The notes below the pieces were generated by a model, which was given only the letters and a program-made list of their open reading frames with translations, was not told the DNA's origin and made no database searches. A DNA stretch of 64,000 nt from Candidatus Bathyarchaeia archaeon (GTDB lineage Archaea; Thermoproteota; Bathyarchaeia; 40CM-2-53-6): NCBI GenBank assembly GCA_050013255.1, contig JBEKFP010000001.1:320001-384000 (forward strand), given 5' to 3'. The stretch's first letter is position 1, and each line of letters opens with the position of its first letter. Below are positions 36,517 to 61,240 of the stretch, piece by piece. Both the position numbers and the translations under genes were made by a program.

Positions 36517-36586
36517 GTCTGGGACACTTAGCCGGTATCGTTACGTCCTCAATATATTAGAGCTGGGAGCTGCATGTCGTGACGAA

Positions 36587-38393: not shown

Positions 38394-40529
38394 TTGACTG
38401 TAGGCAAGGAGGCAACACTCTACCAGCAGCTCCCTGGCGGCAGGGTTAGGTGCACGGCCTGCGCCAGATACTGCAACATCCCTGAAGGAAAGATAGGCCT
38501 CTGCGGAATCCGCGGAAACACCAACGGAAAACTCTGGCTCTACGTCTACGGCAAAATAATCGCCGGCCACATCGACCCAATCGAAAAGAAACCCGTAACC
38601 CACTACATGCCAGGAAGCAAGATCTTCTCAATCGCAACAACCGGATGCAATTGGCTCTGCCATCCCGCGGGCACACAAATCCTGTTGGCAAACGGGAGGA
38701 AGAGGAACGTTGAGGACTTGTTGCCTGGTGACAGCCTATGGTCCTATGACATTGAGGATGGAATGAAGATTACTCCTGATGTAGTCACACATCTTGGGCG
38801 CCGCCGGGCTCGCCTGTGGGAAGTGCGCTATGGCTCGCATGGACACGGCAGGCTGGTAATTACAAAAGAACACCCCATTCTCACAAAGAGGGGGTGGAAG
38901 ACCGTTGAAGAACTTCGCTCCGGAGACAAGATTCTGAAAGTTTGGTATCAAAATACTCAAGCATGGAAACGCCATAGGGCGGCATCGATCGGCACCGCCG
39001 AGTTTACTTGCGGAAAATGTGGAACCGAAGTGAAGGGGCTCGACGAATGGAACCGCCATCGTGGCGAATGTTATACTCGCGAACTTGAGATCAGCCCCGA
39101 AGTTCGAGCGCGATGTAGCGATAGAATGAAACTCAACAACCCGATGAAGGACCCCAAGATCGCAGCACGTGTTGTGCAGACTAGCCGGGAAAAGTTTCGA
39201 ACAGATCCCAACCATTATTGGCACAAGAATAGGGAGAGGCTTCGGATCTGGTTGCATCGCCATCCCTCTGTTAGTCAGCTGCGATTGTATGAATTATTGG
39301 AGGAGCTGGGCGTCAAGTACGAGAAAGAATACAAGATTCATCCGGAGAAGGGGATACCTGGATCACAGACCCACTATCTGGCAGATGCGGCATTTCCTGA
39401 TATCAACCTTGACGTGGAAGTCGACGGATGGTGGCACTACCACAACGAACAGGTTCAAGAGCGAGACAGAATCAGGGACAAGACACTTCGGGCTAATGGC
39501 TGGACCGTGCTGAGGATCTCAGGGAGTTACGTGTACAATCATCCCCAAGAAGTAAAGGCACTCATAGCAGAAAACCTGCAGCAACCAGTTCTTACAAATA
39601 AACGCGAATGGGTGACTGTCAAAGAGGTCGCACCCACATCAAAGTTCGAGCAGGTCTACAGTTTCGAATGCATTCCCAAGCACAATTACGTCGCAGACGG
39701 CATTGTCTGCCACAATTGTTCTTACTGCCAGAACAGTGACATTAGTCAACGACGCAAAATCGAGGGATTGGACGCGTCTCCGGAAACGGTTGTGGAGATG
39801 ACGAAGCGTTACCGTTGTGAAGGGTTGGCGTATACTTACAATGAGCCGTCCATCTTCATCGAGTTCGCCCATGATATTGGTGTCCAAGCGCGGAAGGCGG
39901 GGCTGATTAACATATTCGTCTCAAACGGGTACGATACTCCTGACACGGTAGGTTTGATGCGGGATTTCTTGGATTGTATCACGGTGGATTTCAAGGGGAG
40001 CGGCGAGACAGCGTTCGTGCGCAAGTATATCGCCATCGCGAACGCGGACCCAATCTTTCAGACTCTGCTAGAGATTCGTGATAGGACTAAGGTTCACATT
40101 GAGATCACGGATCTAATCGTCCCAGAGGTTGGAGACGACCTGGGGGCAGCGAAGAAACTTTCTTCTTGGGTGTATGATAACCTGGGCCCTGATACGCCGA
40201 TTCACTTCCTCCGATTCCACCCCGACTACAAGATGATGAACCTACCACCGACGCCGGTCAAAACATTAGAGAAGCATCACGCAGTCGCCAAGGAGGTGGG
40301 ATTGAACTACGCCTACCTTGGCAACGTGCCAGGCCACCCGCTAGAACACACATACTGCCCAGAGTGCAAGGCCGTAGTTGTGGAACGCCTCGGTTTCGAC
40401 ATCACAGGCTGGCATCTCGATAATCAAAACCGTTGCACTAACTGCGGAAACGAAATTCCAATCGTAGGCCGCTTAAGTAAATCAGTAAACGAAGAACGAT
40501 TCATCCCCATAATAATGGGGACCACATAA
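38394..40529 (+). CDS. AmmeMemoRadiSam-type radical SAM enzyme, intein-containing
   Basis: CTACARYC, DPIEKKP..H, GCNWL[intein]CSYCQNSDISQ, YTYNEP, HFLRFHPDY, Y.GNVPG..EHTYCP. Confidence 0.92.
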   Translation: MTVGKEATLYQQLPGGRVRCTACARYCNIPEGKIGLCGIRGNTNGKLWLYVYGKIIAGHIDPIEKKPVTHYMPGSKIFSIATTGCNWLCHPAGTQILLANGRKRNVEDLLPGDSLWSYDIEDGMKITPDVVTHLGRRRARLWEVRYGSHGHGRLVITKEHPILTKRGWKTVEELRSGDKILKVWYQNTQAWKRHRAASIGTAEFTCGKCGTEVKGLDEWNRHRGECYTRELEISPEVRARCSDRMKLNNPMKDPKIAARVVQTSREKFRTDPNHYWHKNRERLRIWLHRHPSVSQLRLYELLEELGVKYEKEYKIHPEKGIPGSQTHYLADAAFPDINLDVEVDGWWHYHNEQVQERDRIRDKTLRANGWTVLRISGSYVYNHPQEVKALIAENLQQPVLTNKREWVTVKEVAPTSKFEQVYSFECIPKHNYVADGIVCHNCSYCQNSDISQRRKIEGLDASPETVVEMTKRYRCEGLAYTYNEPSIFIEFAHDIGVQARKAGLINIFVSNGYDTPDTVGLMRDFLDCITVDFKGSGETAFVRKYIAIANADPIFQTLLEIRDRTKVHIEITDLIVPEVGDDLGAAKKLSSWVYDNLGPDTPIHFLRFHPDYKMMNLPPTPVKTLEKHHAVAKEVGLNYAYLGNVPGHPLEHTYCPECKAVVVERLGFDITGWHLDNQNRCTNCGNEIPIVGRLSKSVNEERFIPIIMGTT
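38658..39716 (+). mobile_element. Intein (353 aa) with zinc finger and Vsr/DUF559-like endonuclease
   Basis: N-terminal CHPAGTQILL, block B ITKEHPILT, C-terminal HNYVADGIVCHN followed by +1 Cys; internal ADAAF..VEVDGWWH...RDRIRD..LRANGWTVLRI. Confidence 0.92.
40089..40517 (+). repeat. Left copy of 429-bp imperfect direct repeat (3' end of radical SAM gene)
   Basis: Colinear without indels with 60809-61237; about 59 mismatches by manual count. Confidence 0.95.
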
Positions 40530-40881
40530 CCAAGAGCAAGTTCTCTCGCATCATATTATGATACTCTCAACCTGTCGCAGTCCTTACGAGGTAGACGGAC
40601 CCGCGCTTACGTGAAAGATGGCGGGGCCAAAGGGAACATACGTTCGAATGGCTGTTCCCAGTTGCAGCCTCATAGCATGTACACAAAATGGGCGTCACAT
40701 TGCAAAGGTTGTTGAATCGGTTATTGTGAAACTTCCGCGAACATAGTTTCATAGTCCTTCTCACCGCTCACAAGAACAGGTGAGAAGACGCTTTCTTATC
40801 GGACCGAGAGAATCGCTCGAACTGCGAATAAGTAGCCATCTTTATCTTGTTATCTCACGAACCCGAAGCCGTGTTCTTGAG

Positions 40882-42072
40882 ATGCCGCCTCCGAAGTTTC
40901 TCGATTTTCCCGAAGCCGAATATCGGCGGAGATATGAACGAATCAGAGAGATTATGACTGAGAGACAGATCGATGCCATCCTGCTTACAGCGAAAGAGAA
41001 CCTCATTTACTTCACAGGCTATCGGACTGTCCTCTATGACGGTAGCAAGTTCAACTCGTTCATCTGCATCCTTTCACGCGACCAGCCTCCCGTAATGCTA
41101 TCGCCCGCTATGGAGAGATTCGCCATGGAGCAGACAAGTTGGATTCCGGATGTGCGTCACTGGGGAATGTACTTCAACCCTCACGCTCCAGATGCCATCT
41201 CTCTAATCACAAAAACTCTCAAGGAACTGAAGCTGGACAAAGGGACCCTAGGCATGGAGCTAGGAGTGGCTCAAAGGATAGGCATGTCTGTCAACGACTT
41301 CGAACGGCTGAAGCAGAACATTCCTAGATCAAGAATCATAGATGCCTCTGAAAGTTTATGGAAAGTGAGGAGCGTAAAGTCACCCGAAGAGATCGATAGA
41401 ATTCGGCGGGCTACCGAGATAACGGAGAAAGGGATCGTGGCCGGTTGGAAAACTCTGAGGGAGGGCATTTCCGAGAGAGAAGTAGCGAGAGCCATCCAGA
41501 GAACAATGATCGAAGAGGATGCCGACAAACTAGCGTTCATCGTCACTAGGTCGGGGTTCGCGCGAATGAACATGGTAAACCCTCCCTTCTCAGACTACAA
41601 ATTGCAGAGGGGCGACATAATGATCCTAGACCTCGGAGCCATCTATAGGGACTACTGGTCCGATATGACTCGAAGCGCGTCCATTGGCCCCGTCAGCGAG
41701 GACGCGAGGAAAGTGTACAATGTCTTGTTAGAGGCACAGAAGTCGGCGTTCGCAGAAATAAAGGGCGGTGCCCGGGTCAAGGATGTTGTTGAGGCGGCTA
41801 ATGGAATAATACGAAAAGCTGGATACGAGAAGTGGATGTTGAGCGGCATCGGCCATGGTTTAGGCCTTGAGGTGCACGAGATGCCGCGCTTGACGGCTGT
41901 CGACGAGACTCTTCTGGAGCCGGGTATGGTAATAACAATAGAGCCGTCGCTATACCCGCTTGTCTATACGGGAACCATAGGGAACTTCCTTGTAGAGGAT
42001 ATTGCTGTCGTAACAAAGAACGGGTGCGACATGTTGACTAGAATGGACAGAGAGATTTACGAGGCGACCTAA
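40882..42072 (+). CDS. M24 family Xaa-Pro peptidase
   Basis: Metal ligands LDLG, SDMTR, GHGLG, TIEP, VED; likely ATG 40882. Confidence 0.9.
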   Translation: MPPPKFLDFPEAEYRRRYERIREIMTERQIDAILLTAKENLIYFTGYRTVLYDGSKFNSFICILSRDQPPVMLSPAMERFAMEQTSWIPDVRHWGMYFNPHAPDAISLITKTLKELKLDKGTLGMELGVAQRIGMSVNDFERLKQNIPRSRIIDASESLWKVRSVKSPEEIDRIRRATEITEKGIVAGWKTLREGISEREVARAIQRTMIEEDADKLAFIVTRSGFARMNMVNPPFSDYKLQRGDIMILDLGAIYRDYWSDMTRSASIGPVSEDARKVYNVLLEAQKSAFAEIKGGARVKDVVEAANGIIRKAGYEKWMLSGIGHGLGLEVHEMPRLTAVDETLLEPGMVITIEPSLYPLVYTGTIGNFLVEDIAVVTKNGCDMLTRMDREIYEAT

Positions 42073-42152
42073 ACGGATTTATTCAAATGCATTCTCGGAA
42101 GCGTTTTTCACATCGGTTGTCGGCCTAGAGACGGACCAGACGGAGAAATAGG

Positions 42153-43190
42153 TTGAGAATATACGAATACGTCCTTCGACGTCTAGCCTTAATGATATTC
42201 GTCTTGTTCGGAGTGAGCGCCATAGTCTTCTACATGGCCCGAGGTTTCCCTTCAGCTTTCGCTCCATGGGCCCAGTATGTATCTGAGAAATTGAAACCAG
42301 GTCAGCTTGAAGCGATAATAAAGGCGCATGGGTTCGACCAACCACTCTACATTCAGTACTGGTATTGGCTCCAGGATGTGTTTCATGGAGACTGGGGATA
42401 TTCGAACTGGGCGAACGGACTCCCGACGTACTATGTCTTTGTCTCGCGCTTTCCGTTCACGGTCGAATTGACCATAGCGGCTACAATCTTTACCGTGGCC
42501 CTCGGGATACCGCTTGGAATACTCTCCGCGGTGAAGAACAACACAGCGATTGACCACGTAGCACGAATAATCGCTCTCACTGGTTATTCAGTTCCCTCCT
42601 ACTGGTTCGCTTACATTTTGCAACTGGTATTCTTCTACTACTTCTACACATGGGGGTTACCGAACCTTCCGAGTGGCGGCGTCATTAGTCAAGGTCTTGC
42701 AGGAACAGTGCCTACGATAACAGGACTCCCAATCTTAGATGGTTTACTTGCGGGTAACCTCACGTATACTGTGGATGCGCTCGCACATGTGATATTGCCA
42801 GCTTTCAACCTCAGCTTCATCAGCCTCGGTTATCTCGCTCGAATAGTTAGGGCAAGTATGCTTGACGTTCTCAGACAAGACTACATTACTATGGCTAGGT
42901 CCAAAGGCCTACCCGAACGCATAGTCATCTACAGGCATGCGCTCAGGAATGCGCTTATCCCCGCCATGACTTTGACGGGAATCTTCGTTGCAGGGTTATT
43001 GGGCGGCGCGATAATTACGGAAACGGTCTTCTCATGGCCGGGCGTTGGGAACGTTTCCCTACGCGCAGTGTTTCTTGGTGATAGCAACTTTCTGCTTCTA
43101 TACTGTCTAGTAACTGCTTTGATAATCGTCGTTACAAATCTTGTCGTTGACGTCTTGTACCTCTTCATCGACCCTAGAATAAAGTACTAG
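42153..43190 (+). CDS. dppB: Di/oligopeptide ABC permease
   Basis: DQPLYIQY, QDYITMARSKGL, HALRNALIP, IDPRIKY. Confidence 0.9.
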   Translation: MRIYEYVLRRLALMIFVLFGVSAIVFYMARGFPSAFAPWAQYVSEKLKPGQLEAIIKAHGFDQPLYIQYWYWLQDVFHGDWGYSNWANGLPTYYVFVSRFPFTVELTIAATIFTVALGIPLGILSAVKNNTAIDHVARIIALTGYSVPSYWFAYILQLVFFYYFYTWGLPNLPSGGVISQGLAGTVPTITGLPILDGLLAGNLTYTVDALAHVILPAFNLSFISLGYLARIVRASMLDVLRQDYITMARSKGLPERIVIYRHALRNALIPAMTLTGIFVAGLLGGAIITETVFSWPGVGNVSLRAVFLGDSNFLLLYCLVTALIIVVTNLVVDVLYLFIDPRIKY

Positions 43191-43199
43191 GTAGACAGC

Positions 43200-44141
43200 A
43201 TGAACGAGAAAGCTGACCGGGCTCACGGCACGGAGAGCGAAACGCAGGCACGGATCGCTGAGCTAAAGTACTCTCTCCATCAGATGCGGCAGAATCCACT
43301 AGTCCTCGCTGGATTAATACTCGTCGTCTTCTTCACCGCCGTGGCTGCAGTCGCGACGTTATTGGTCAGTAACGATGAAGCCTTCATGTTCGACTTCGGA
43401 CAGAGCTATTGTTGGAGTAACGCTGTCTTCTCTTGGACACAACTAGAAGCGACGTGTCCCCCGGGGACGAATTTCATACTAGGGACTGACGGTTTCGGAA
43501 GAGACCTCCTCAGAATGATCATACTCTCAATCCCCCTGGATCTCAAGATCGCATTCCTGATAGTCGCAGCGGCGTCTGCGTTCGGAGTGGCCTTAGGTGC
43601 AATTGCCGCATGGATCGGCGGAAAATTCGATGAGGCAATTCTGAGGATAACTGATGTTTTCTTCGCATTTCCAGGACTTGTTCTTGCCTTAGTGTTCGCC
43701 GCTTTGTTCGGTCGAACAGTTCAAACTTTGACTCTGGCCGTTCTTCTCGTATGGTGGCCAACATATGTTCGATTGACGCGGGGGCAAGTGCTCGTTGAGA
43801 AAGAAAAAACCTATGCTGAAGCACTCAAATCCATTGGAGTAAGTCCAGCAAGAATAGTTCTCTTTCACATTATACCAAACGCGATATATCCCATAATTGT
43901 TCAGATGACCTTGGACATCGGCGGCGTGATCCTCACTTTTTCTGCACTAATCTTCTTGGGCTTTTCCCCCAGCCCGGCGTTGCCAGAATTAGGAAATCTT
44001 GCCGCTGACGGGATCAATCACGTGTTTACAGCACCCTGGTTAATAGTCTTCCCGGGACTCACGATCCTGCTCATTGCACTCGCGTTTAACCTAATGGGAG
44101 ATGGATTGAGGGACATTCTTGATCCGCGGTTGAGAAGGTAA
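43200..44141 (+). CDS. dppC: Di/oligopeptide ABC permease
   Basis: LGTDGFGRD, HIIPN, GDGLRDILDPR. Confidence 0.9.
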   Translation: MNEKADRAHGTESETQARIAELKYSLHQMRQNPLVLAGLILVVFFTAVAAVATLLVSNDEAFMFDFGQSYCWSNAVFSWTQLEATCPPGTNFILGTDGFGRDLLRMIILSIPLDLKIAFLIVAAASAFGVALGAIAAWIGGKFDEAILRITDVFFAFPGLVLALVFAALFGRTVQTLTLAVLLVWWPTYVRLTRGQVLVEKEKTYAEALKSIGVSPARIVLFHIIPNAIYPIIVQMTLDIGGVILTFSALIFLGFSPSPALPELGNLAADGINHVFTAPWLIVFPGLTILLIALAFNLMGDGLRDILDPRLRR

Positions 44142-44145
44142 AGGA

Positions 44146-45243
44146 ATGGCACACGAAGATCGCGGGCCCATACTTGAAATCAAAGACCTTACGGTGAACT
44201 TCAAGACATACCGCGGAGAGGTTAAAGCTCTTGACAGAGTAGGCTTAGCTCTCTATAGGCACGAGGTTCTCGCTCTGGTCGGCGAGTCGGGATGCGGCAA
44301 ATCAGTTACCGCTCTCGCAATACTCGGACTCCTCCCCCGGAACGCTTTCATCCTGTTCGGTCAAGTATTCTTCAAAGGAACGGATCTCCTCAAGGAATCC
44401 ATTGAACAGAAAAGAGAGGTACGCGCTGAAGGAATCGCTGCCATATTCCAAGATCCCGTGACGTTCCTGAACCCTGTGTTAACTATTGGTGTTCAGCTAA
44501 AGGAATCGTTCCTAGTGCAGAAGCACCTAGGGTACGCCAACTTGCAAACTGGGGAAGAAAACAAGTCACCCGGGGGTGAAATCAGAGAGTTTCTCATGAG
44601 AAGGGACAGCCCCGGAACAGAGGCGCAACGTGAAGGAATATCTGGAAGAGAGAAGGAGAAGATTGCCAAAGAGCTTTCCTCAAAGATTCTTGACTTAGTT
44701 CGCCTCCCAGACCCGGAACGCATCCTGACACAGTACCCTCATGAGCTTTCAGGCGGGATGCGGCAAAGATGCATGATAGCCATGGCCTTGGCGCGGCGCC
44801 CGTCGATATTCATTGCAGACGAGATCACAACTGCCCTTGACGTTACAGTCCAGGCACAAATCCTTGCTTTGCTCAAAGAACTTCGCGACTCGATTGACGC
44901 GTCAACCCTGCTCATTACTCACGACCTGTCGGTAGCCGCTGAGACCGCTGATAGGGTCGCTGTTATGTATGCCGGGAATGTTGCAGAAGTGGCGACTACG
45001 AAGCAACTCTTCAGAAACCCGCTACACCCCTACACACAACTCTTGATGAAGTGCATTCCCGATATCAGAAAACTGGTCGTTCGACTGGAATCAATTCAAG
45101 GTAACGTTCCCGACTTAATCGATCCTCCCACTGGGTGCAGGTTCCATCCACGTTGCCCCTTTGCTATGGAGATCTGCCGGAAAGAAAAACCTGCCCTCAA
45201 AAGCATGGGTGACGGGCACCTCGTTCACTGCCACCTTTATTGA
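44146..45243 (+). CDS. dppD: Di/oligopeptide ABC ATP-binding protein
   Basis: GESGCGKS, YPHELSGGMRQR, HPYT, GCRFHPRC. Confidence 0.92.
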   Translation: MAHEDRGPILEIKDLTVNFKTYRGEVKALDRVGLALYRHEVLALVGESGCGKSVTALAILGLLPRNAFILFGQVFFKGTDLLKESIEQKREVRAEGIAAIFQDPVTFLNPVLTIGVQLKESFLVQKHLGYANLQTGEENKSPGGEIREFLMRRDSPGTEAQREGISGREKEKIAKELSSKILDLVRLPDPERILTQYPHELSGGMRQRCMIAMALARRPSIFIADEITTALDVTVQAQILALLKELRDSIDASTLLITHDLSVAAETADRVAVMYAGNVAEVATTKQLFRNPLHPYTQLLMKCIPDIRKLVVRLESIQGNVPDLIDPPTGCRFHPRCPFAMEICRKEKPALKSMGDGHLVHCHLY

Positions 45244-45252
45244 GGAAGAAAC

Positions 45253-46293
45253 TTGGCAGAAGAAATTCTAGTCGTCGACGACCTCAGGAAGTGGTTTCCA
45301 ATCAGAGCAGGCTTTCTTCAAAAGACCGTAGGACACGTAAAAGCTGTCGATGGTGTCAGCCTCCAGATGCGTAGGGGCGAAACATACGGTCTAGTAGGTG
45401 AATCCGGCTCAGGAAAAACAACTCTCGGCAAAAGCATCCTACGTCTTATCGAGCCGACAGGAGGAACGGTTCTCTTTGATGGCTTCGACGTGACGAAGGC
45501 TAAGAAAAAAGAACTCAAGAAACTTCGAAGCCGCATGCAAATGATCTTTCAAGACCCATACGCGTCACTCGACCCCCGGCAAACAGTAGGTTCTACACTG
45601 AGCGAGGCCATGCGAACGCACGGATTGGTTCGATCCAGGAGCGATGCAATCACGCGTGCCAAGGAGCTTCTACGCCGAGTTGGAATGAACGAAGAACACA
45701 TGTTCCGTTTTCCCCACGAGTTTAGTGGCGGCCAAAGACAGAGAATAGCTGTTGCACGAGCATTGGCCGTTGATCCAGATTTTATAGTGCTCGACGAACC
45801 CACCTCATTTTTGGACGTCTCGGTACAGGCTCAGGTTCTTGATTTGCTTAAGGACCTGCAGAATGAACTGAACCTCAGCTACGTGTTCATCTCACACAAT
45901 CTAAGCGTCGTCCAGTACATGAGCAATCGAGTTGGGGTAATGTATCTCGGTGGCCTCGTAGAGGATGGGGAACGCGACCTCATCTACAAGTCGCCCGAAC
46001 ATCCCTACAGTTACTATCTGATGGCAGCTATTCCCATACCCGACCCAGAATTCAAGAGAGTTCCGAAACTCCTGAGCGGTGACGTACCAAGCCCAGTCAA
46101 TATTCCCCCGGGCTGTCGGTTCAATCCGCGTTGCCCCTATGCAACTGATAAATGCCGTGCCGGAGAGGTGCCATTTTACGCTGGGTCAGGCAGTTATCGT
46201 AGGGTGGCTTGCCATTATGAGATTGATTTCGAAAAGGGAACGCAAACGGTGAGAACGATATCTCTGGGTCAGACGGATGCCGGCATCCAATGA
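45253..46293 (+). CDS. dppF: Di/oligopeptide ABC ATP-binding protein
   Basis: GESGSGKT, FQDPYASL, FPHEFSGGQRQR, GCRFNPRC. Confidence 0.92.
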   Translation: MAEEILVVDDLRKWFPIRAGFLQKTVGHVKAVDGVSLQMRRGETYGLVGESGSGKTTLGKSILRLIEPTGGTVLFDGFDVTKAKKKELKKLRSRMQMIFQDPYASLDPRQTVGSTLSEAMRTHGLVRSRSDAITRAKELLRRVGMNEEHMFRFPHEFSGGQRQRIAVARALAVDPDFIVLDEPTSFLDVSVQAQVLDLLKDLQNELNLSYVFISHNLSVVQYMSNRVGVMYLGGLVEDGERDLIYKSPEHPYSYYLMAAIPIPDPEFKRVPKLLSGDVPSPVNIPPGCRFNPRCPYATDKCRAGEVPFYAGSGSYRRVACHYEIDFEKGTQTVRTISLGQTDAGIQ

Positions 46294-46313
46294 TAAAGGA
46301 GTTGCAGTGGCTT

Positions 46314-46466
46314 ATGTCACGTGAGGAATACGATACAAAAGAGAGTGTTCATTTAGACTGGCGTGACTACGTCGCGATCATAATCGCGTCTTTTGAGACG
46401 ACACTTCTACCCATTCTTGTTGTAATCGCTGTGCTGATTCTCCTTGCACTTCTTCTGAGACGATAG
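46314..46466 (+). CDS. Small membrane protein (50 aa) ending the dpp operon (not in ORF track)
   Basis: MSREEYDTKESVHLDWRDYVAIIIASFETTLLPILVVIAVLILLALLLRR. Confidence 0.65.
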   Translation: MSREEYDTKESVHLDWRDYVAIIIASFETTLLPILVVIAVLILLALLLRR

Positions 46467-46535
46467 GGAGAGCGCTAGAATCGGTTCTTTCTGTGCCACA
46501 AATGTTGACAACGAGCTGGCCGAGGCTCCCGGAGA

Positions 46536-47753
46536 CTAAACCAGTTCCAGTTCCTTCTCGGTCTTGGTCAAGTTTTCCGCGCCCTTCGGCGTGATCAAGA
46601 CTGTGTCTTCGAATCTTACTCCGCCGTAGCCTGGGAGGTAAACTCCCGGCTCCACGGTCACCACATTTCGGTTCTCGAATCCTTTGTGGTTACCGAATGT
46701 TAGGTACGGACGTTCACCGATCGTGAGGCCTACCCCGTGTCCAAGCGTGTGAGTCATGCCTGAGGGCAAATTCGTCGCTTTGCCTCCGTAGAGGTCACGC
46801 ACAGTCCGGTAACCATGGCGCTCAATGATATCACACGCCTTGTTCATTGCTTGTTCCCCGGTTATTCCTTCGCGAAGATAATCTGAAGTCTCCGTCTGAG
46901 CTTCATGGACCGCCTCATAGATGCGCCTAGCTTTGGCGTCGGCGCGGCCTATGACGAAGGACCTTGTCATGTCACACCAATAGGAAGTTCCGGCTTGCGG
47001 GAAAATGTCGAAGATTATTAGCTTACCTTCCTTCAGTTTCTGTGTTGGAATGCCCATATTATGAACCGGAATTGCCGAGGCGCCTTGAGCAAAGATAGTG
47101 CCCTCCGGATCGCTGAGATGTTCCGCGAGAAGCCTCTGGGAGATTAACGACTTAACTGCTCCTATCGTCGCAGGTTTGCCGCCAAGGTTGAGACCGCCGC
47201 GTTTCCGCTTCATGTTTCTCATGACATCGAGTATGAACTCGACGACTCTACATGTGCTTCTGGCGACGCGACGCAATTCCTGAATCTCTTCGTCGCTCTT
47301 TGTCTCGCGTAGGGACTCGATTAGGCTTTGTGAAATGTCGCCCGTAACCTTGAAGCCCATACTCCTCAATTGATCTGCTATGCCAATTCCTGCGGTCAGA
47401 TCGTTACGCCCGGCAAGAACGACGCTGCCCTTGATTTCGTTGTCCGAGAGAATCTTAGCCAGCAACTGCGGGATGGCCTGAGCAGGACCATACTTCATGG
47501 TAAGTTCTTCCATGCCAAAATCGGTATAGGTATAGTAATTCCTCAATCTGCCATAATTCCTAGCAAGCTCGATGTCGAAATCCTTCACAATCAAAAAGGG
47601 TTCTTTGGAACGGCGTTTGAAAAAGTAGCCTCCTCTAGGCACAGCGCCCCCTATAACGTATGTCAGATCTGGATTTCCTAGTGTACTGTCCCCATAAACC
47701 AACACAGCTTCTATGTCCCGCTTCCCCATCTCTTCGTCCAATTTCTCAAACAT
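46536..47753 (-). CDS. M24 family Xaa-Pro peptidase
   Basis: IFDIF, CDMTR, HTLGHGVG, TVEPGVY, RFED. Confidence 0.9.
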   Translation of the reverse strand: MFEKLDEEMGKRDIEAVLVYGDSTLGNPDLTYVIGGAVPRGGYFFKRRSKEPFLIVKDFDIELARNYGRLRNYYTYTDFGMEELTMKYGPAQAIPQLLAKILSDNEIKGSVVLAGRNDLTAGIGIADQLRSMGFKVTGDISQSLIESLRETKSDEEIQELRRVARSTCRVVEFILDVMRNMKRKRGGLNLGGKPATIGAVKSLISQRLLAEHLSDPEGTIFAQGASAIPVHNMGIPTQKLKEGKLIIFDIFPQAGTSYWCDMTRSFVIGRADAKARRIYEAVHEAQTETSDYLREGITGEQAMNKACDIIERHGYRTVRDLYGGKATNLPSGMTHTLGHGVGLTIGERPYLTFGNHKGFENRNVVTVEPGVYLPGYGGVRFEDTVLITPKGAENLTKTEKELELV

Positions 47754-47985
47754 CGATGATCATCTAGAATCATTCTTCACTTAGAGAGTCGCGCCCTGCG
47801 CGTTCCTCTACACACCTTGTGTCAATGAAATAGATTAGGCAGTTAGTTGTCGGAGCTGAACGGCGGCCTCAATTCAAATTAGAGAGCACTCAGAGAAGAT
47901 ATACTGATTGGAGATTCCTATCTGATTCCTACTTTTGGTTATCTTAGAACACTCTTATTGAAGCTAAGAGTGAGTTGCGTGAAAA

Positions 47986-51401: not shown

Positions 51402-51526
51402 TGCGGTCACCTTTTTTCTATCTCAGTCATTCATTAACGATTCAAGCAATCGTCATACTCAGTTTGAGAACAAGGCGCATACTAGTCTTGACTGAAAAAA
51501 GGGGGAAAGGAGAAATGTTTTCGAGT

Positions 51527-53557: not shown

Positions 53558-53780
53558 TTAGAAATTCTCCTAGGGTTGCAACGAAGAACCAGCTATTGTA
53601 ATTTTGCATTGTACACTACATACAACACTTAGCGTGCGTGCTACCCCACTACTAGTACTTGCTAGCCAACTAGTAGTTCGATTAGCCGACCAGCTCCACG
53701 AATAGTGCCGTCCGCTAGCCGAAATTAGCGCATTCATTCAATGAAGATGCTACTGAGGACGTAATCTTCGCTGAGCTGTC

Positions 53781-54944
53781 TTACAACTGAAACAGTTTTC
53801 TATCAAAATTGGTCAAGAACTCAGTTTTTCGAGACCCTACCAGGACCATGTCCTCTACACGTAGATAGTATTCACCGGCGCGCCAGATCTTGGGTTCCAA
53901 GGCTAAGACCATGTTCGCGTGGAGGGATTCTTTGTATGAGGGGTTTAGCCAAGGAAGCTCATGACATTCGACACCAATATTGTGACCGACCTCCTGCGTC
54001 GTGAGACGTGCACGCAAAGTGTCCCCGTACCCAAGCCTATCCATAGTTTTCTCATAGGTTGGATACACATCGCACACTCTCATGCTCCCATCATGCATTT
54101 TCTCCACTGTCTCAATTAGCCCCTGGTGCAACGCTCCGTATCCTTTCTCCGCATCCTCATTTGCGGAGCCAAAGTAGAAACTCCTCCCATAATCAGAGCA
54201 GTACCCATCCATTACGAAACCGAAATCAAAGGCGACCGAAGTACCTGGTTCCAATCCCTTCTCCTTTGGGTATGTGCAAGCATTCGTATAGTAGCCGGGC
54301 GGCAATTTCTCAGAACCAGACTTCACGAAACCTGCTAAGAACGGAAAGGAAACGTGAGTAGCCCCTAACTGTCGACCTAGGAATTCTGTTTCTAGTTGGA
54401 GTTCTCCCTGAGTGACTCCGCGCTTAACTTTGGGAAGGAGGTTCTCCATTACCTTATCAGTGAGATTAGCAACTTTTCGGAGTCGATCAATCTCTCCAGG
54501 GTCTTTGATCATTCTAAGATTGTCCATCAAGGATTCTGCTCTGTGAAAGCTGGCGCCTTTTGCGTACTTCGAGAGTTCTGCTACTGTAGACCCCCAAACA
54601 TGGTCACCCAATCCCACTCGATTTGTTTTGATATCCAAGTCGGAGAGTACGGCGGCAACCAACTTGCCATAATCCCCCTCCCTCTTCAACACTCTGACGT
54701 CTTTGATGGTAGTTTTCTGAGATTGCTCTGAAAATACTTCATCCAAGGTTAAGATCGGTGAGCCTTCTCTCGCTACGAATACGTTGTTGGCTGGACTTTC
54801 GAAATCAATTCCGCTACGCCAATCAATCAAGAGCCCCGTCAGATATTGAAAGTTTTGACACGAGCCGTAGACAACGATGTCAAGGCCTTCTTCTGCCATC
54901 TTTTTCTGAAGGCCAGTTACTCTTCTGTTGAAGTCTAAGCTCAT
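53781..54944 (-). CDS. M24 family Xaa-Pro peptidase
   Basis: AFDFG, SDYGR, GHNIG, ALEP, RVED. Confidence 0.88.
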   Translation of the reverse strand: MSLDFNRRVTGLQKKMAEEGLDIVVYGSCQNFQYLTGLLIDWRSGIDFESPANNVFVAREGSPILTLDEVFSEQSQKTTIKDVRVLKREGDYGKLVAAVLSDLDIKTNRVGLGDHVWGSTVAELSKYAKGASFHRAESLMDNLRMIKDPGEIDRLRKVANLTDKVMENLLPKVKRGVTQGELQLETEFLGRQLGATHVSFPFLAGFVKSGSEKLPPGYYTNACTYPKEKGLEPGTSVAFDFGFVMDGYCSDYGRSFYFGSANEDAEKGYGALHQGLIETVEKMHDGSMRVCDVYPTYEKTMDRLGYGDTLRARLTTQEVGHNIGVECHELPWLNPSYKESLHANMVLALEPKIWRAGEYYLRVEDMVLVGSRKTEFLTNFDRKLFQL

Positions 54945-55126
54945 AGCCTACCTACGCGCCCCTCATTCAGATGAGCTAAGAACTTTCCGAATATATTCTG
55001 CCGGGCTGATTTTCTATCAGAATTATGACCGAGAGGCGTTGCCAATCCGAGTTTTGGCACCGGCTTGAACACACAAACTGGGACACCGTTCGACTTGAAC
55101 TTGAATACCGCTCCGCCTCACCGCGC

Positions 55127-56098
55127 CTACAGTTTGATTTCAATCCCGGCACTTTCGCGTAGAGCGGATTTGTAAATCGTATTAGCAGCGGCCACATCTT
55201 CCACGGCGATGCCGACAGACTTGAACAACGTTATCTGTTGAGCATTTGTTCGTCCAGCTTTCTTACCAGCAATTACCTCTCCGATTTCCCCGCTAATTTC
55301 ATCTACCTTGTAACTGCCTCTCGACATAGCTTCAATCAGGTCGCCGGACTCTTTAGTCGCTTGTTCAATCGAATCCACGAAGACCTTAGACCTTCGAAAC
55401 AATGCTACGTCAAGTTCTCGTCGAGAGGGCATGTTGGACCCGATTGCATTAATGTGCGTCCCCGGGTTTACCGCAGAGGCATCGAAGAGAGCCTGATTTG
55501 AGGTTGTAGCAGTTATTAGAACATCAACATTCTGCACAACCTCATCGGGGGATGAGGCAACCTCAAGGGCCACCTTGAATCGGTCGAGAGCTATTCTGCG
55601 CGCCTTCTCCGCTTGCTCGCTCTTCACATCGTATACGTACCCGCTCTGAATTCTGAGAACATGGCTGATTGCCTCAAGCTGTCCGAGTCCCTGCACACCG
55701 GCCCCCAGCAATCCTAAGTTCCTTGAGTCTTTACGAGCCAAGTACTTCGTGGCCACCGCAGATGCTGCACCAGTTCTAAGTTGAGTAAGCCGGTTAGCAC
55801 TCATCACGCATAACAGAGATCCATCTTGGTCGAATAGCATTACGACAAAATAGGTTCCTTCAGGCGTTCTCTTACCTGCGCTTCCTGTGAGTACCTTCAA
55901 GCCAGCCGTATTCAATTCTGGTAACGCAGCGAGCATGACGCGAAGCGTACCGGGTGTTCCGGGACGGTCCATCTGGTATCTCGGCGGCATTAATGTCGTC
56001 TTTTCACTGTATTGTTTGAGCGCCATCTCAACATCAGCAATTATCGAGTCTAAACTGGCGAGTTTTGATACGGCCTTCTCGTCTAGTATTAGGACCAA
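55127..56098 (-). CDS. Ornithine cyclodeaminase/mu-crystallin family protein
   Basis: LTQLRTGAAS, GAGVQG, HINAIGS, FKSVGIAVEDVAAA. Confidence 0.9.
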   Translation of the reverse strand: MVLILDEKAVSKLASLDSIIADVEMALKQYSEKTTLMPPRYQMDRPGTPGTLRVMLAALPELNTAGLKVLTGSAGKRTPEGTYFVVMLFDQDGSLLCVMSANRLTQLRTGAASAVATKYLARKDSRNLGLLGAGVQGLGQLEAISHVLRIQSGYVYDVKSEQAEKARRIALDRFKVALEVASSPDEVVQNVDVLITATTSNQALFDASAVNPGTHINAIGSNMPSRRELDVALFRRSKVFVDSIEQATKESGDLIEAMSRGSYKVDEISGEIGEVIAGKKAGRTNAQQITLFKSVGIAVEDVAAANTIYKSALRESAGIEIKL

Positions 56099-56221
56099 CC
56101 TGGATCCCTAAACCGGACGCTTAGCCAAGGGCTCCGTCCTTTAACGCTTTGGGCTCTCGAAATCAACGGAAGCAATTATTAGCTGACGCCGTTAAGGCGA
56201 AAAACCTGAAGGGTACCATGC

Positions 56222-57160
56222 ATGGTCGCGAAACTGCACGGTATGTGCGCCATCTTGGCGACGCCATTCGATTCTCAAAAGAAGATTGATGAGAAAAGCC
56301 TCAGGTCGTTAATTGATTTTGAACTAAAGGCAGGCGTCCATGGCGTTACCATCCTGGGCCTTCTGGGGGAAGTGTTACGATTGTCTGATGTTGAGAGAAG
56401 TGAAATCACAAGGATAGTACTAGATGAAGTTCGCGGACGTGTCCCCGTGGTGTCCGGAACAGGCGCGTCGGGTACGGATCTCGCAATAATGTACAGCAAA
56501 GAAGCGGAAAAACTTGGCGTCGACGCCGTTATGATTGCCCCACCTAGGTTAGCCAAACAGAATGATGATGCACTCGTCAATTATTACAATGAGATTGCAA
56601 AAGAAATCAACATCCCAATAGTTGTCCAAGACGAACCAATGACATACGCTGTTCACATGTCACCCAAGCTGATCGCTCGTTTCTCCGAGATTGGGGGAGT
56701 TGACTACATCAAATTGGAAGACCCGCCAACGCCAATCAAAATATCTCAAATTCGAAGCTTAACCGATGACCGTTTAGGAATTTTCGGAGGCCTTGGTGGA
56801 CTATACGCGTTTGAAGAGCTTTCGAGAGGGGCCGTTGGCGTTATGACTGGTTTCGCCTACCCCGAAGTCCTCGCGAGCGTCTGCGAAGCCTTTTCGAGAG
56901 GAAAACGCGAAGTTGCACGCGACTTATTCTACCGCGCTCTCCCGTTGATTAGGTACGAAGCTCAACCAATGGTTAGCCTTGCAATCAGAAAGGAGATCTT
57001 CAGAAGACGCGGCTCAATCAAAGACTCAATAATGCGTGAACCAGCAACTAAACTGGACCAAGAAAGTTTCAAAGAAATTGATGAACTATTGGCTGGAATT
57101 AACATAGACGAGCTACTGGCAACATCCAAGAAAGTAGCAACCGGTAAAACCACCGCTTAA
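56222..57160 (+). CDS. Dihydrodipicolinate synthase (DapA) family lyase
   Basis: ATPFD, LGLLGE, VVQDEP, Schiff-base YIKLED. Confidence 0.88.
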   Translation: MVAKLHGMCAILATPFDSQKKIDEKSLRSLIDFELKAGVHGVTILGLLGEVLRLSDVERSEITRIVLDEVRGRVPVVSGTGASGTDLAIMYSKEAEKLGVDAVMIAPPRLAKQNDDALVNYYNEIAKEINIPIVVQDEPMTYAVHMSPKLIARFSEIGGVDYIKLEDPPTPIKISQIRSLTDDRLGIFGGLGGLYAFEELSRGAVGVMTGFAYPEVLASVCEAFSRGKREVARDLFYRALPLIRYEAQPMVSLAIRKEIFRRRGSIKDSIMREPATKLDQESFKEIDELLAGINIDELLATSKKVATGKTTA

Positions 57161-57292
57161 GGGCTGAAGCCTCTCAGTTGATGTGTGGCTCTGAACAAGC
57201 CTCGTGCATACCCACCGAACAGAGGCTGTGCAAGACGACGCGTTTTCGTTTTAACGAAAGGCAATTTACATTCACAGCACAAGCATTAGCCT

Positions 57293-58396
57293 ATGCAAAT
57301 TACGAAAGTTCAAGCATATCCTGTCCGCGTGCCGATGCGACAGTTCAGTGACGCATATTCCGATTATCCGATGGGACAATTTGTGCTCGTCGAAATCGAG
57401 ACTGACCAAGGGACGGTTGGCTTCGGTGAGGCTCCCTGCACAGTCACTGTGGGGTTCTACGGAGAAACATTGGAGACGGTAACTGCAGCGATTCGGAATT
57501 ACCTTGGACCAAGGTTGTTGGGGGAGGATCCGCTCAACATACGCAAGGCTACTTCACTCATGAATTCCATCCATGGAGCTGCATTCATCGCTAAGACGGG
57601 CATCGATACAGCGCTCTATGATTTAGCGGGCAAAGCCCTCGAAGTTCCTGCAAGTACCTTGCTAGGTGGCAGACAAAGAAACAGCATAGAGGCTGCGTCT
57701 GAGATAGCGATAGTTAATCCCGAAGAAATGGTTCGAGAAGCCCGCCGCCTCATTGAGTTGGGTTTCAAAGTCATCAAAGTCAAGGCCGGCAGAAATGTCG
57801 ATGATGAGGTCAAGGGGATCAAAGCGATTCGGAACGCGGCAGGCTCAGACATCGAACTGAGAGTCGACCCAAACGGAGGGTGGTCACGCCTCGACACTCT
57901 CCGAGCCCTCAAGGTCCTTGCGCGTGAGGAAATCAGTTACATTGAACAACCGCTTCCGGGCTGGGATCTGGAAGGCCTTGCATGGCTACGGAAAGCAACG
58001 GGTGTCCCCGTAATGGTTGACGAGAGCGTCTGGACTCCACAGGACGTGATTAAGATCGCAAGAGCAGAAGCCGCGGACATAATCAACATTAAGATCACTA
58101 AGGCTGGCGGCTTGAAGAACTCTCTGGCTATCTACACGACCGCAGAAGCGGTGGGCATCCCGTGCATCGTTGGAACCGAACTCGAATCATGCGTCGCAGT
58201 CGCGGCGAAACTGCAGCTCGCGGCTTCATTGGAAAACCTGCCTTATGCCTGTGAATTTACGGAATTGGCTTTTCAGAGAATGGCCATAAAGGAATCTCTG
58301 CAGCTCCAAAATGGTACCCTGAAGGTTCCGACAAGCCCAGGCCTGGGTATGACTCCAGATAGGCAATTGATAGACCAGAACACTGTTTCTCTGTAA
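57293..58396 (+). CDS. Enolase-superfamily (MLE subgroup) racemase/epimerase
   Basis: IKVKAG, DPNGG, IEQP, VDES, NIKITKAGG, PGLG. Confidence 0.85.
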   Translation: MQITKVQAYPVRVPMRQFSDAYSDYPMGQFVLVEIETDQGTVGFGEAPCTVTVGFYGETLETVTAAIRNYLGPRLLGEDPLNIRKATSLMNSIHGAAFIAKTGIDTALYDLAGKALEVPASTLLGGRQRNSIEAASEIAIVNPEEMVREARRLIELGFKVIKVKAGRNVDDEVKGIKAIRNAAGSDIELRVDPNGGWSRLDTLRALKVLAREEISYIEQPLPGWDLEGLAWLRKATGVPVMVDESVWTPQDVIKIARAEAADIINIKITKAGGLKNSLAIYTTAEAVGIPCIVGTELESCVAVAAKLQLAASLENLPYACEFTELAFQRMAIKESLQLQNGTLKVPTSPGLGMTPDRQLIDQNTVSL

Positions 58397-58445
58397 CTGA
58401 GAAGTAAGCTACCAATTCGCGTGGTCTTTTTGTTGTTAGTTTCCT

Positions 58446-58583
58446 ACGGACGGATTACTCATTGTCCCGCCATTTTACAGTAAGCCGGGATTTGAGGAAA
58501 TCTACCAATACTACTCGGCCATTTCGAAGGCCGTTAACATTCCGACCAAGGAGGATTCATCCAATGTGACCTTGAAACCGTAA
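58446..58583 (+). pseudogene. Internal fragment of a second DapA-family gene
   Basis: Manual translation TDGLLIVPPFYSKPGFEEIYQYYSAISKAVNIP; in-frame TAG at 58437 and no start codon. Confidence 0.75.
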
Positions 58584-58839
58584 TACTACCCTACATAGAC
58601 CATGACACTAGGGTTGTTTCTTATCAGCGAGAATTCTCTAGGCGACGGTTCTTTGAGAAGCGATCCGAATTATCATTGAATAGCACTGCCGTGTGTTGTA
58701 TCAACAGAACAATACATGTAATCTTCAAACTCCGAAAGATCTAGACAACTGTGAAAGGTTCATCCGTAGACATTCTGGAAACGAGTTCGTTGCCTCGTCG
58801 TTCGGCAGCTTTATACAGACACCAAAAATAATCTGAGTT

Positions 58840-60801
58840 ATGGCTAGACTGCCTACTGATGGTCTGCCTGTGGCTATTACTCCGGAAGATATCCTAACGA
58901 AGAAGGTCATTACTGACGCACAGATTTCATCCAATGGGAACTCCATCGCTTTTGTTGTGGGAGATTGTTTCAAGGAAAAAATTGGGAAAGCAAAATCGAA
59001 CATTTGGTTAGCTGATGTCGGTTCGGGGACCTTGCGTCAATTCACTAGAGGGGCTGGGACCGACAACTTTCCAAGATGGTCACCCGACGGGACGAAGCTT
59101 GCTTTTCTGTCAGATAGGTCCGAGAACCGCCTGGTTCAGGTCTACCTGATAGACCGAGAAGGAGGTGAAGCGCTGCAGCTGACTGACATTAGAGGTGAGA
59201 TAACTGACTTTGCATGGTCTCCTTCAGGCAAGGAGATAGCGTTTCTGATGTATGACCCAGAGACGGAGGAAGATAGGGTGAGGATGGAAAAGTCTGGAGG
59301 CGCAATTGAATTCGAGAAGTTTCACAAATTCTGCAGAATCTGGACGGTACACATCCAAAATAAGTCTCTTAGGAAGGTCACGGAAGATCATCAGGTCTGG
59401 GAATTTTGCTGGTGTCCGGATGGCAGTTGCTTTGCTGCCATTGTGGCAGATGAACCCTACGAATGGTCGTGGCATATAGCACGCTTGGCTGTAATACCCA
59501 TCAATACAGGCGAACCCCGCGTTCTGTATGATGCGAAACCGAAGCAGCTGGGGGGGCTGTTGTGGTCACAAGACGGGCGGTCGATCTATTTCTTGTCAGC
59601 TACATTGAGTGACAGGCCGCTCGTAGGCGGTGACTTATTCAGGATATCTGCGTCTGGTAGTGAAAGGAAACCGACAAATCTTACGAATGACAATCTGGGT
59701 TCAGTTCACTATGCGAAATGGAATGCAACGGACAGACTAATTGTTCTTAGCGTAAACAATGCGAAGACGATATTCACGTTAGTGAACCTTTCAGGGCCAA
59801 AGCAAGTAGAGTTTACTACATTGTACGAGGGAGAAGTAGGGGTAATTGGCGGATTGTTGTTCACTTCACAGCCAATGTTCTCTTGTGCGGACAACGGATT
59901 AATCGCAATAGTTAGGGAAGATCTGTACTCGCCGCAGGAAATCTGGTATGGCAAAATGTCGGAGGCAAGCATTTTTTGGAAACAGCTTACGGATTTCAAC
60001 AAGCCGTTGAAGAAGTACTCGAACATTTGCGCGGAAATGGTCGAATGGAAGTCTTTTGATGGTCTGAATATTCAGGGATTTCTCTACTATCCTCCCAGGC
60101 AACAAAATGAACCTCTTCCACTTGTTGTTCATGAGCATGGAGGACCATCGTTCGGTTACGGTTGCAGATTCGAAATGGAAGCGCGATATTATGCTTCTCA
60201 TGGATATGCTGTTCTCTTGCCTAATCCGCGAGGGAGTATGGGAAGAGGAGTCAAGTTCCTAGAGATGAACAGAGGCAACATAGAAGGCAAGGACTTCAAA
60301 GATATCATGGCAGGAGTGGATTATTGCATAGAACAGCAATGGGCCGATCCAAAGAACCTCTTTGTTTATGGAGGAAGCTACGGTGGCTACCTCGTAGCTT
60401 GGACGGTTTCACAAACTCAGAGGTTCAATGCCGCTGTAATGGACTTCGGAATATGTAATTTACTAAGCTGCCACGGAGGCGAATGGAACACGTATTGGGA
60501 AGTATTTCAATTCGACATTGATCCCTACAACCAATCAGACTTGTTCAACAAGAAATCTCCAATCTATTACGCACGAAATGTAAAAACTCCGACTTTGATA
60601 ATACATGGAAAAGAAGACCCATGTGTCCCAGTAGAACAAGGGCACGAATTCTTTCGAGCTCTCAAAGAGCTAGGCATACAGACCGAGCTGATTGTTTATC
60701 CGCGAGAGGGGCATGGATATCAAGAGAGGGTCCACATGATCGATTCCTTCCAACGACACCTAAACTGGTTCAACGAGCACATGAAACATCACGAGTCATA
60801 A
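58840..60801 (+). CDS. S9 family peptidase (acylaminoacyl/prolyl oligopeptidase-like)
   Basis: WSPDG propeller repeats, HGGP, PNPRGS, GGSYGG, HGKED, REGH. Confidence 0.92.
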   Translation: MARLPTDGLPVAITPEDILTKKVITDAQISSNGNSIAFVVGDCFKEKIGKAKSNIWLADVGSGTLRQFTRGAGTDNFPRWSPDGTKLAFLSDRSENRLVQVYLIDREGGEALQLTDIRGEITDFAWSPSGKEIAFLMYDPETEEDRVRMEKSGGAIEFEKFHKFCRIWTVHIQNKSLRKVTEDHQVWEFCWCPDGSCFAAIVADEPYEWSWHIARLAVIPINTGEPRVLYDAKPKQLGGLLWSQDGRSIYFLSATLSDRPLVGGDLFRISASGSERKPTNLTNDNLGSVHYAKWNATDRLIVLSVNNAKTIFTLVNLSGPKQVEFTTLYEGEVGVIGGLLFTSQPMFSCADNGLIAIVREDLYSPQEIWYGKMSEASIFWKQLTDFNKPLKKYSNICAEMVEWKSFDGLNIQGFLYYPPRQQNEPLPLVVHEHGGPSFGYGCRFEMEARYYASHGYAVLLPNPRGSMGRGVKFLEMNRGNIEGKDFKDIMAGVDYCIEQQWADPKNLFVYGGSYGGYLVAWTVSQTQRFNAAVMDFGICNLLSCHGGEWNTYWEVFQFDIDPYNQSDLFNKKSPIYYARNVKTPTLIIHGKEDPCVPVEQGHEFFRALKELGIQTELIVYPREGHGYQERVHMIDSFQRHLNWFNEHMKHHES

Positions 60802-60808
60802 CCCCGTA

Positions 60809-61240
60809 AAGGTTCACATTGAAATCACGGACCTAATCGCCCCAGAGGTTGGGGACGAATTGGGGGCTGCGAAGAGGCTGTCTTCTTGGGTGTATGATAA
60901 CCTGGGACCTGATACGCCAATTCACTTCCTACGCTTCCACCCAGACTACAAAATGATGAACCTCCCACCAACACCAGTCAAAACATTAGAGAAGCACCAC
61001 GCAATCGCCAATGGGGTTGGGCTGAATTACGTGTACTTAGGGAACGTGCCGGGGCACCCGCTAGAACACACCTACTGCCCAGAGTGCAAGGCCATAGTTG
61101 TGGAACGCCTCGGTTTCGACATAACAGGCTGGCACCTCGACAAGCAAAACCGCTGCTCAAACTGTGGAAACGAAATCCCCATCGTGGGCCAATTGAGCAA
61201 GTCAATAAATGAAGAACGCTTCGTGCCCATAATCATGTAA
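60809..61240 (+). pseudogene. 5'-truncated duplicate of the radical SAM gene 3' end (right repeat copy)
   Basis: Starts abruptly at KVHIEITDL just after the S9 peptidase stop; lacks the CxxxCxxC region. Confidence 0.9.

Follow-up and report, generated by a model that had tools for sequence, protein, structure and literature searches.

A diverged duplicate of a radical-SAM gene end flanks a composite metabolic island in a Bathyarchaeia genome and may record serial, integrase-independent displacement

The DNA analysed here, called the window, is a stretch of 64,000 nucleotides (positions 320001-384000 of contig C1) from G000, a genome of 2.46 Mb in three contigs whose nearest species representative is a Bathyarchaeia metagenome-assembled genome (MAG) from SPRUCE peat. 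Bathyarchaeia are abundant, uncultured archaea, and next to nothing is known of the ways in which they exchange genes. The subject is a radical-SAM gene (rSAM) whose 3' end is found a second time downstream, behind a series of peptidase, transport and metabolic genes. The live gene (38394-40529, forward strand) encodes an AmmeMemoRadiSam-type protein of 711 aa including an intein (Pfam Intein_splicing, MTES_1575, DUF559 and Radical_SAM). The intein, at approximately 38659-39716, interrupts the CxxxCxxC motif and carries a DUF559/MTES_1575 (Vsr-like) nuclease domain. Relatives have the same intein, a LAGLIDADG intein or none, with a constant insertion site (aa 88-92); a second intein site near nt 461 of the gene was rejected, as every intein lies at aa 88-92. 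The genomes of relatives are designated G001-G018 and so on, and contexts were compared over 22 genomes of the genus. Loci and contigs compared carry labels such as L053, L063 and L095, which are distinct from L, the left copy of the gene end.

The left copy, L (40089-40517, forward strand), is the 3' end of the live gene and corresponds to gene nt 1696-2124, or nt 638-1066 without the intein; this intein-free numbering is used for all remnants below. The right copy, R (60809-61240, forward strand), is a 5'-truncated remnant of 432 bp that remains in frame over 143 codons, has its own stop (61238-61240) and is without the radical-SAM core. Between 40089-40517 and 60809-61237 the offset is fixed at 20,720 nt, with zero indels and 59 mismatches in 429 nt (86.2% identity), divided over the third, first and second codon positions as 46/8/5 in the frame of the gene at 38394-40529. 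The match has a BLAST E-value of 1e-144 within the 2.46-Mb genome. Its edges are sharp, with only 4 to 12 of 30 positions matching in the adjoining 30-nt windows at the same offset. R begins 8 nt after the stop codon of an S9 peptidase gene (60799-60801). The first-pass annotation, made from the sequence alone, had described colinear copies with mostly third-position mismatches, the right one starting mid-gene just past this stop, and the duplicated gene end is confirmed as real in each of these respects. The live gene has lost its ancestral stop (TGA in G018, GGG here), making the open reading frame (ORF) 3 codons longer than those of relatives; the 30 nt just past the ancestral stop (40518-40547, forward strand) are homologous to the post-rSAM sequence in G018, with 23 of 30 positions matching.

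Both junctions recur on independent contigs and assemblies. The exact live rSAM protein of the window is present on 13 independent contigs, and on 13 contigs this protein leads into the first M24 peptidase. At least 22 contigs, which stem from several samples and assemblers, have the exact S9 protein and behind it R, an 83-aa ORF, an MNT-like gene pair and a second radical-SAM gene (rSAM2). One contig of 251 kb holds both junctions, with a spacing between gene starts of 20,446 nt, exactly that of the window. A two-strain chimera joined via the common gene end, which the first-pass annotation had named as a possible refutation, therefore has virtually no weight. The source is a metagenome in which related populations co-exist, and one contig (L084:1-9962, Ga0208037_1000085) does change type, being G014-type (98.6%) from the rSAM end through the MR/MLE gene and G000-type from S9, with the switch within a 200-nt indel at 58488-58687; the contig is chimeric or else recombined in nature. 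However, the recurrence of the junctions across samples and assemblers, together with the exact spacing, speaks against a chimera, and an identity of 86% between the copies is too low for an assembler to collapse them.

Between L and R lie 14 ORFs, every one with a metabolic or transport Pfam assignment. They encode three M24 peptidases, an Opp/Dpp ABC transporter (two permeases, two ATPases and one binding protein), an amidohydrolase-type Xaa-Pro dipeptidase, an M28 peptidase, an ornithine cyclodeaminase/mu-crystallin family protein (OCD), a DHDPS-family protein, an MR/MLE-family protein of the enolase superfamily and an S9 peptidase of the prolyl-oligopeptidase family. This cargo looks specialised for proline-containing peptides. 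The first block (40780-54944, mixed strands, assigned by Pfam and NCBIfam) is absent from G014, a sister species, and contains in order an M24 Xaa-Pro peptidase, the two permeases, the two ATPases, an M24 peptidase (reverse strand), the Xaa-Pro dipeptidase, the M28 peptidase, the SBP_bac_5 binding protein (reverse) and a further M24 peptidase (reverse). The second block (55127-60801, mixed strands, assigned by Pfam) is common to G014 at 93-94% nucleotide identity and holds OCD (reverse), the DHDPS-family gene, the MR/MLE gene and the S9 gene.

No integrase, transposase or Cas1 domain was found by Pfam among the 14 cargo ORFs, in agreement with the absence of integrase and transposase already claimed from the letters alone. 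Matches to PF00589 lie on contigs C2 and C3 only, with none on C1, and PF16795 has no match in the genome. All island ORFs are assigned and none is a serine recombinase, families that were not searched genome-wide. Between the boundary zones there are no direct or inverted repeats of at least 9 nt, no terminal inverted repeats and no target-site duplication. A transposon or casposon was rejected, since the locus has neither such terminal repeats nor a duplicated target site, and no transposase or Cas1 domain. No tRNA or tmRNA targets were found in the window, in the following 52 kb or in the relatives' loci. Intergenic pieces compared to the rest of the genome, as a test for miniature inverted-repeat transposable elements, gave self-matches only. 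The tetranucleotide distances of the island in 5-kb pieces fall between the 36th and 84th genome percentile, and its GC content is 0.48-0.51 against 0.503 genome-wide. The island is native-like, so its composition gives no sign of foreignness.

In G014, an intein-free live gene is followed directly by OCD, DHDPS, MR/MLE and S9, with a cargo of only 5.4 kb, then by the same spacer of 7 nt and by 95 nt from the start of the fragment. The stretch specific to G000 in comparison with G014 is 40530-55093 (14.5 kb), between the live gene and OCD. It stands beside the intein-bearing allele on 13 of 13 contigs, while the intein-free G014-type allele leads to OCD directly. The joint between S9 and the fragment is identical in G000, G014 (also L057) and L061, a population with S9 and 300 nt of the fragment including indels. 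As defined by the S9 gene in L058, L060 and L062 and by the live gene, this joint (60802-60810, forward strand) connects S9-downstream sequence to rSAM nt 638 with a 2-nt AA overlap. In those three loci S9 occurs in other contexts at 89-93.5% nucleotide identity, and the homology to G000 ends 7-9 nt past the S9 stop. The native DNA downstream of S9 there includes an M24b-type neighbour.

The first-pass annotation had treated the region as a single island of 20.7 kb. This does not hold, as G014 has the same joint with only the OCD-DHDPS-MR/MLE-S9 genes, the 14.5 kb is tied to the intein-bearing allele, S9 occurs elsewhere as a separate cassette and the k-mers are native-like. By these comparisons, the island is composite and not one mobile unit. 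The S9 cassette itself (58805-60808) measures 2.0 kb with sharp borders and is found in three different contexts; in L060 it is positioned between two inverted M24 genes. On L061 (Ga0187881_10024804), after the decayed fragment, positions 795-875 hold 81 nt that consist of the last 28 nt of the MR/MLE gene and 53 nt downstream of it (window 58369-58449, 96%). This piece appears to be another gene-end remnant at an illegitimate joint.

To the right of R, the window has a vapB-like ORF of 83 aa (61264-61515, forward strand), without a Pfam match itself, which is 94% identical at the nucleotide level to the ORF after the live rSAM gene on L063 and L067. It is followed by the MNT-like nucleotidyltransferase (weak NTP_transf_2 match, E-value 1.6e-4) and a 203-aa ORF without Pfam or NCBIfam match (61578-62803, forward strand). 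This pair, with gene calls on 8 contigs, occupies in G000 the place of vapC in L063. Next is rSAM2 (63248-64000, reverse strand, continuing to 64405 past the window; Pfam Radical_SAM/Fer4_12), which encodes 385 aa and shares 26% identity with the rSAM core. It is colinear in L063 and G014, and in G018 a 99-nt remnant of its 3' end lies 37 nt past the live rSAM gene. By these positions, rSAM2 was the ancestral convergent neighbour of the rSAM gene.

The empty site that had been predicted, with rSAM followed directly by vapB, was found on seven contigs of another Bathyarchaeia population (L063-L067 and others). These have a live intein-free rSAM gene, then the 83-aa vapB and a vapC with a PIN domain, and after them an rSAM2 that has lost a part and a type I restriction system. 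Searches of the 22 genus genomes with the DNA downstream of R and with that downstream of the older remnant described below returned only partial, non-syntenic matches. The last 351 nt of the live L063 gene are 97.4% identical to R. Over the locus, the nucleotide identity between L063 and G000 is 82.5% for the upstream flank, 86.0% for L, 94.0% for R, 94.0% for the vapB region and 90-91% for rSAM2, and the homology stops at window position 64432. A protein-database search with R for longer proteins led to P0001, a live, intein-free protein of 355 aa that is 95% identical to R and scores 329 bits against TIGR04337 (AmmeMemoRadiSam system radical SAM enzyme; cut-off 220). Because the flank of the live L063 gene is colinear and of high identity, the DNA to the right of R is that which natively follows a live gene.

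These observations bear on a local origin of R, in which a deletion would have removed the 5' part of a tandem duplicate or of another full-length paralogue. Order-level relatives have 2-4 rSAM paralogues each, which agrees with such an origin, as does G004, in which two complete g420-PK-rSAM loci are found (C36 and C5; L024 and L025), one intein-bearing and one intein-free. However, the G004 loci are 83.6% and 80.9% identical to G000, each together with its whole upstream flank, and are most likely two strains binned together. Moreover, the right flank of R is exactly that of the single-copy live gene of L063, R is nearest to a live allele of another lineage and not to L, and a tandem duplication would place OCD, not vapB, after the second copy. 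A local origin is therefore very unlikely.

The left side of the locus is conserved. The pyruvate kinase (PK) gene (36506-38020, forward strand; Pfam PK/PK_C) belongs to the left flank of all genus relatives and is colinear upstream of rSAM in G001-G018 and in metagenome contigs. The flank formed by g420, PK and rSAM is colinear in all relatives examined, while the downstream DNA differs in nearly every genome. In G016 and G013, rSAM abuts genes that are located at C1:426,230 in G000; therefore, about 66 kb of G000 constitutes a variable region that measures 0 kb in those two genomes. The rSAM gene is thus the conserved left border of a hypervariable region of the genus. The rest of this region, C1:381241-426215 (window 61241 to approximately 106 kb), includes the MNT-like pair, rSAM2, a TGT-like gene, a UPF0175 antitoxin fusion, a type III restriction-modification system, an orphan large terminase, two S15 X-Pro dipeptidyl peptidases, a second Opp operon, a proline racemase, an M19 dipeptidase and a STAND NTPase. 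Further genes for peptide and proline catabolism and toxin-antitoxin pairs are found in the variable region. No primordial rSAM remnant was found beside the conserved right flank (C1:426,215).

Pairwise nonsynonymous (dN) and synonymous (dS) divergence was used to assess selection and age, and changes were assigned to branches by polarisation with six relatives. Between L and R, dS is 0.71 and dN 0.046 (dN/dS 0.066). The L branch has 28 changes, 24 in the third position and 4 in positions one and two. The R branch has 22 (13 third, 6 first and 3 second), so that 9 of 22 are in positions one and two, and its changes V11A, E69G and I139V affect sites that are invariant in the six polarising relatives. 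The dN/dS of pairs including R is about twice that of pairs including L, and R is under relaxed constraint. A maximum-likelihood tree groups L and R with the two G004 alleles in a single clade (support 100/99), to which the G014, G021 and G018 alleles do not belong. R is closest to the live allele of L063. The two ends thus diverged mainly as working alleles in different lineages, as had been proposed from the mostly synonymous differences. The accompanying view of a foreign allele plus cargo, rather than a decaying local duplicate, stands for the allele and its cargo. It does not stand for the absence of decay, as R is relaxed, only 95 nt of it remain in G014 and indels are present in L061.

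The ages differ within 25 kb. The flank genes of G000 and G014 differ by a dS of 0.20-0.42, the four cargo genes that both have by 0.10-0.17 and their live rSAM alleles by 1.13. R is also mosaic in comparison with the live L063 allele, with 17 mismatches in nt 1-78 of R and only 9 in nt 79-429 (eight of them in the third position), and over those first 78 nt the L063 allele matches the G004 allele on C5 instead. In view of the three age classes and this mosaic, the locus is reticulate, with crossovers within the gene. A binned comparison of the G014 live allele with R, looking for a crossover inside the repeat, gave no signal above local conservation.

A further 3.2 kb downstream of R, and so a little outside the window, there is an older rSAM remnant at C1:384408-384466 (L053:408-466, equivalent to window positions 64408-64466; forward strand), 2 nt upstream of the rSAM2 start codon. 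In G000, rSAM nt 463-488 are joined in it to nt 985-1019 (a 35-nt match). Its left junction is common to G000, L063 (12687-12722) and G014 (L027:17029-17082), and it extends to nt 488, 498 and 517, respectively. The start coordinates of the two remnants differ (nt 463 for the older one, nt 638 for R). The order of the locus is thus the live gene, cargo, a remnant from nt 638, older cargo and a remnant from nt 463. In these terms, L063 represents a one-round state, and G016 and G013 a zero-round state. A further, independent orphan, a 3' fragment of 606 nt (nt 461-1066, open over 183 aa), was found at L095:7944-8552 (ENA ERZ27249770 k141_162945; NCBI JBEKQF010000002.1 via L103), where it terminates an island that exceeds 18 kb and has defence and metabolic genes.

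The reading preferred here, which is given about an even chance, is that the rSAM gene had its 3' end displaced serially and independently of an integrase, and that R is the displaced end of an allele formerly resident there. The conserved gene would have served as the anchor for recombination, as is suggested because the anchor is one-sided, the remnants have the same orientation and native right flanks, their starts differ, the microhomology is minimal, there is no recombinase and the composition is native-like. In a first step, DNA of a related lineage with a complete rSAM gene and the OCD-DHDPS-MR/MLE-S9 genes would have paired via the conserved PK-rSAM flank, and the non-homologous right end of this donor would have been joined illegitimately inside the resident gene at nt 638. 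The resident 5' part would have been deleted, leaving R beside its native neighbours, vapB and then rSAM2. Such a step would be homology-facilitated illegitimate recombination (HFIR), with the joint made once. Features of HFIR found here are the one-sided conserved anchor and a same-orientation, 5'-truncated remnant with a right flank that matches a live gene elsewhere.

In a second step, suggested by the mosaic patterns, the cassette of gene 3' end, cargo and fragment would spread by host homologous recombination. Both direct rSAM repeats would find their partner in the one rSAM gene of a recipient that lacks the cassette and act as two homology arms. The product would have the donor joint and the first part of the fragment, with the remaining fragment and the downstream flank derived from the recipient. 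This two-arm spread would explain the same joint in three lineages, a cargo younger than its flanks, the mosaic of R and its live-like distal part. In a third step, a later exchange in the G000 lineage might have substituted an intein-bearing allele for the live one and added the 14.5 kb of peptide-uptake and peptidase genes. The older remnant upstream of rSAM2 would have been left by an earlier round of displacement.

Several points weigh against this displacement scenario. We know of no demonstration of DNA uptake or HFIR in Bathyarchaeia. The 2-nt AA overlap at the right joint, between non-homologous sequences, is compatible with HFIR but is a weak signature of an illegitimate joint. The primary donor arrangement, a live rSAM gene with OCD to S9 and then the native downstream DNA of S9, was not found. 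The mosaic of R and L063 can equally be read as the L063 gene being the recombinant. The L095 orphan and the older remnant both start at nt 461-463, within about 4 nt, with different left neighbours; such a coincidence of two random joints would be expected about 1-2% of the time and hints at a hot spot or a specific site. Finally, an ancient integrase could have been lost during cargo turnover.

The mosaic and the shared joint can also be explained by Campbell-type integration. A donor piece from mid-rSAM to the S9 end would have been circularised by end-joining and integrated, in an excisable manner, by a single crossover in the 432-nt rSAM segment. This gives the same architecture without an integrase and explains both one joint inherited in three lineages and a cargo younger than the flanks. 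It also predicts a proximal donor and a distal recipient fragment, which fits the break of R at approximately nt 78-99 relative to L063. However, neither a circular form nor an excision product was seen. The mosaic does not discriminate, since an identical product would arise from a linear cassette acting via both repeats, and the initial circularisation still requires an illegitimate joint. It is regarded as possible but rather improbable.

Another possibility is a classical integrative element with a replacement 3' end, its recombinase since lost and its cargo remodelled. Integrative elements such as phage 21 and e14 in icd replace the 3' end of their protein-coding target gene. A duplicated 3' end, a diverged replacement and a displaced original are the established hallmark of such elements, and like icd-type insertions, this locus has a live gene with a diverged replacement end, the original 3' end at the far side and mostly synonymous differences. 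The two fragments with different neighbours and the same start at nt 461-463 would fit as well, as would the terminase and defence genes farther along the variable region. Unlike in icd, there is no recombinase (PF00589 and PF16795 are absent from contig C1 and 14 of 14 cargo ORFs are metabolic or transport genes) and no identical core. Only 14 nt at the left edge of L and R are identical and the longest stretches without a mismatch (28, 26 and 21 nt) lie inside the copies, although the missing att core is weak counter-evidence since an old event could have erased it. In addition, the starts differ, R beginning at nt 638 and not at nt 461, the composition is native-like and the cargo size varies among lineages with the same joint. 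The joint also lies 8 nt past an intact S9 cassette that is present in unrelated contexts as well. This origin is considered unlikely.

The intein might also be the engine of the hot spot. Its homing endonuclease, of the DUF559 type here and of the LAGLIDADG type in relatives, would cut intein-free alleles at the CxxxCxxC site each time that DNA of an intein-bearing strain came in, and repair would copy the intein together with donor DNA downstream. Gap repair with the right crossover in OCD would explain the linkage of the intein allele and the 14.5 kb, and the truncated remnants would be products of mis-repair once the right end had been resected. From the homing site it is 197 nt downstream to the one remnant start and 372 nt to the other, and the site is part of the block in which G000 and G014 differ. 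These positions are suggestive, but a role of the intein as the driver is quite doubtful.

Displacement of gene ends is known from bacteria. According to Kirchberger (2017, PMC5361080), HFIR-type sequential displacement with orphaned gene ends is proposed for effector-immunity arrays of the type VI secretion system (T6SS) and for rhs loci. C-terminal (3'-end) displacement arrays in rhs, cdi and T6SS loci are also the subject of Jackson (2009), as cited there. Like those arrays, the rSAM locus has a conserved 5' anchor, an incoming module with its own gene end and a same-orientation, 5'-truncated orphan downstream. Repeated rounds likewise lead to strings of orphans, an integrase is absent in both and HFIR is proposed for both. 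Unlike in those arrays, the gene is a housekeeping radical-SAM enzyme with ends that are near-identical in protein and no variable toxin tips, and the cargo consists of 5-20 kb of peptide catabolism and defence genes and not of an immunity gene. The host is an uncultured archaeon, and for keeping the orphan there is no evident selective logic of the kind by which an immunity gene is retained.

For naturally transformable bacteria, HFIR was described by de Vries and Wackernagel (2002), Prudhomme (2002) and Meier and Wackernagel (2003), as cited in PMC5361080. Like here, the anchor is one-sided, the joint with short microhomology lies a few hundred nt away and the intervening recipient DNA is deleted. 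HFIR has been shown experimentally in bacteria only, whereas here it is inferred from sequence, with a microhomology of 2 nt. The process is thus known from bacterial polymorphic-toxin loci, and new here are the uncultured archaeon and the metabolic cargo.

The locus is a sequence-level record of the gain of metabolic and defence cargo at the kilobase scale, beside a housekeeping gene and without a dedicated mobile-element enzyme, and empty-site, one-round and two-round states are all present in related populations. The cargo also bears on how peat Bathyarchaeia gain protein-degrading capacity. If the two-arm reading is true, any island flanked by a duplicated conserved-gene end could be moved by host recombination alone. 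Integrase-based island finders would overlook such islands, and truncated copies of conserved genes would be a cheap marker of these events in MAGs. If, on the other hand, the intein is the driver, a selfish intein would drive island transfer in archaea.

Proteins of 187 aa that match the rSAM C-terminus were considered as a class of many orphans. This was rejected, as they are ORFs starting at Met169 of frameshifted, stop-interrupted or contig-end genes, a description that applies to many database entries of 186-187 aa, and L095 alone has a true orphan. One gene of this kind, at L098:3414-5564 of a Thaumarchaeota MAG (JACQFN010000001.1), is an intein-bearing orthologue with an in-frame stop 5 codons before Met169, which makes gene calling split it into a 524-aa and a 187-aa protein.

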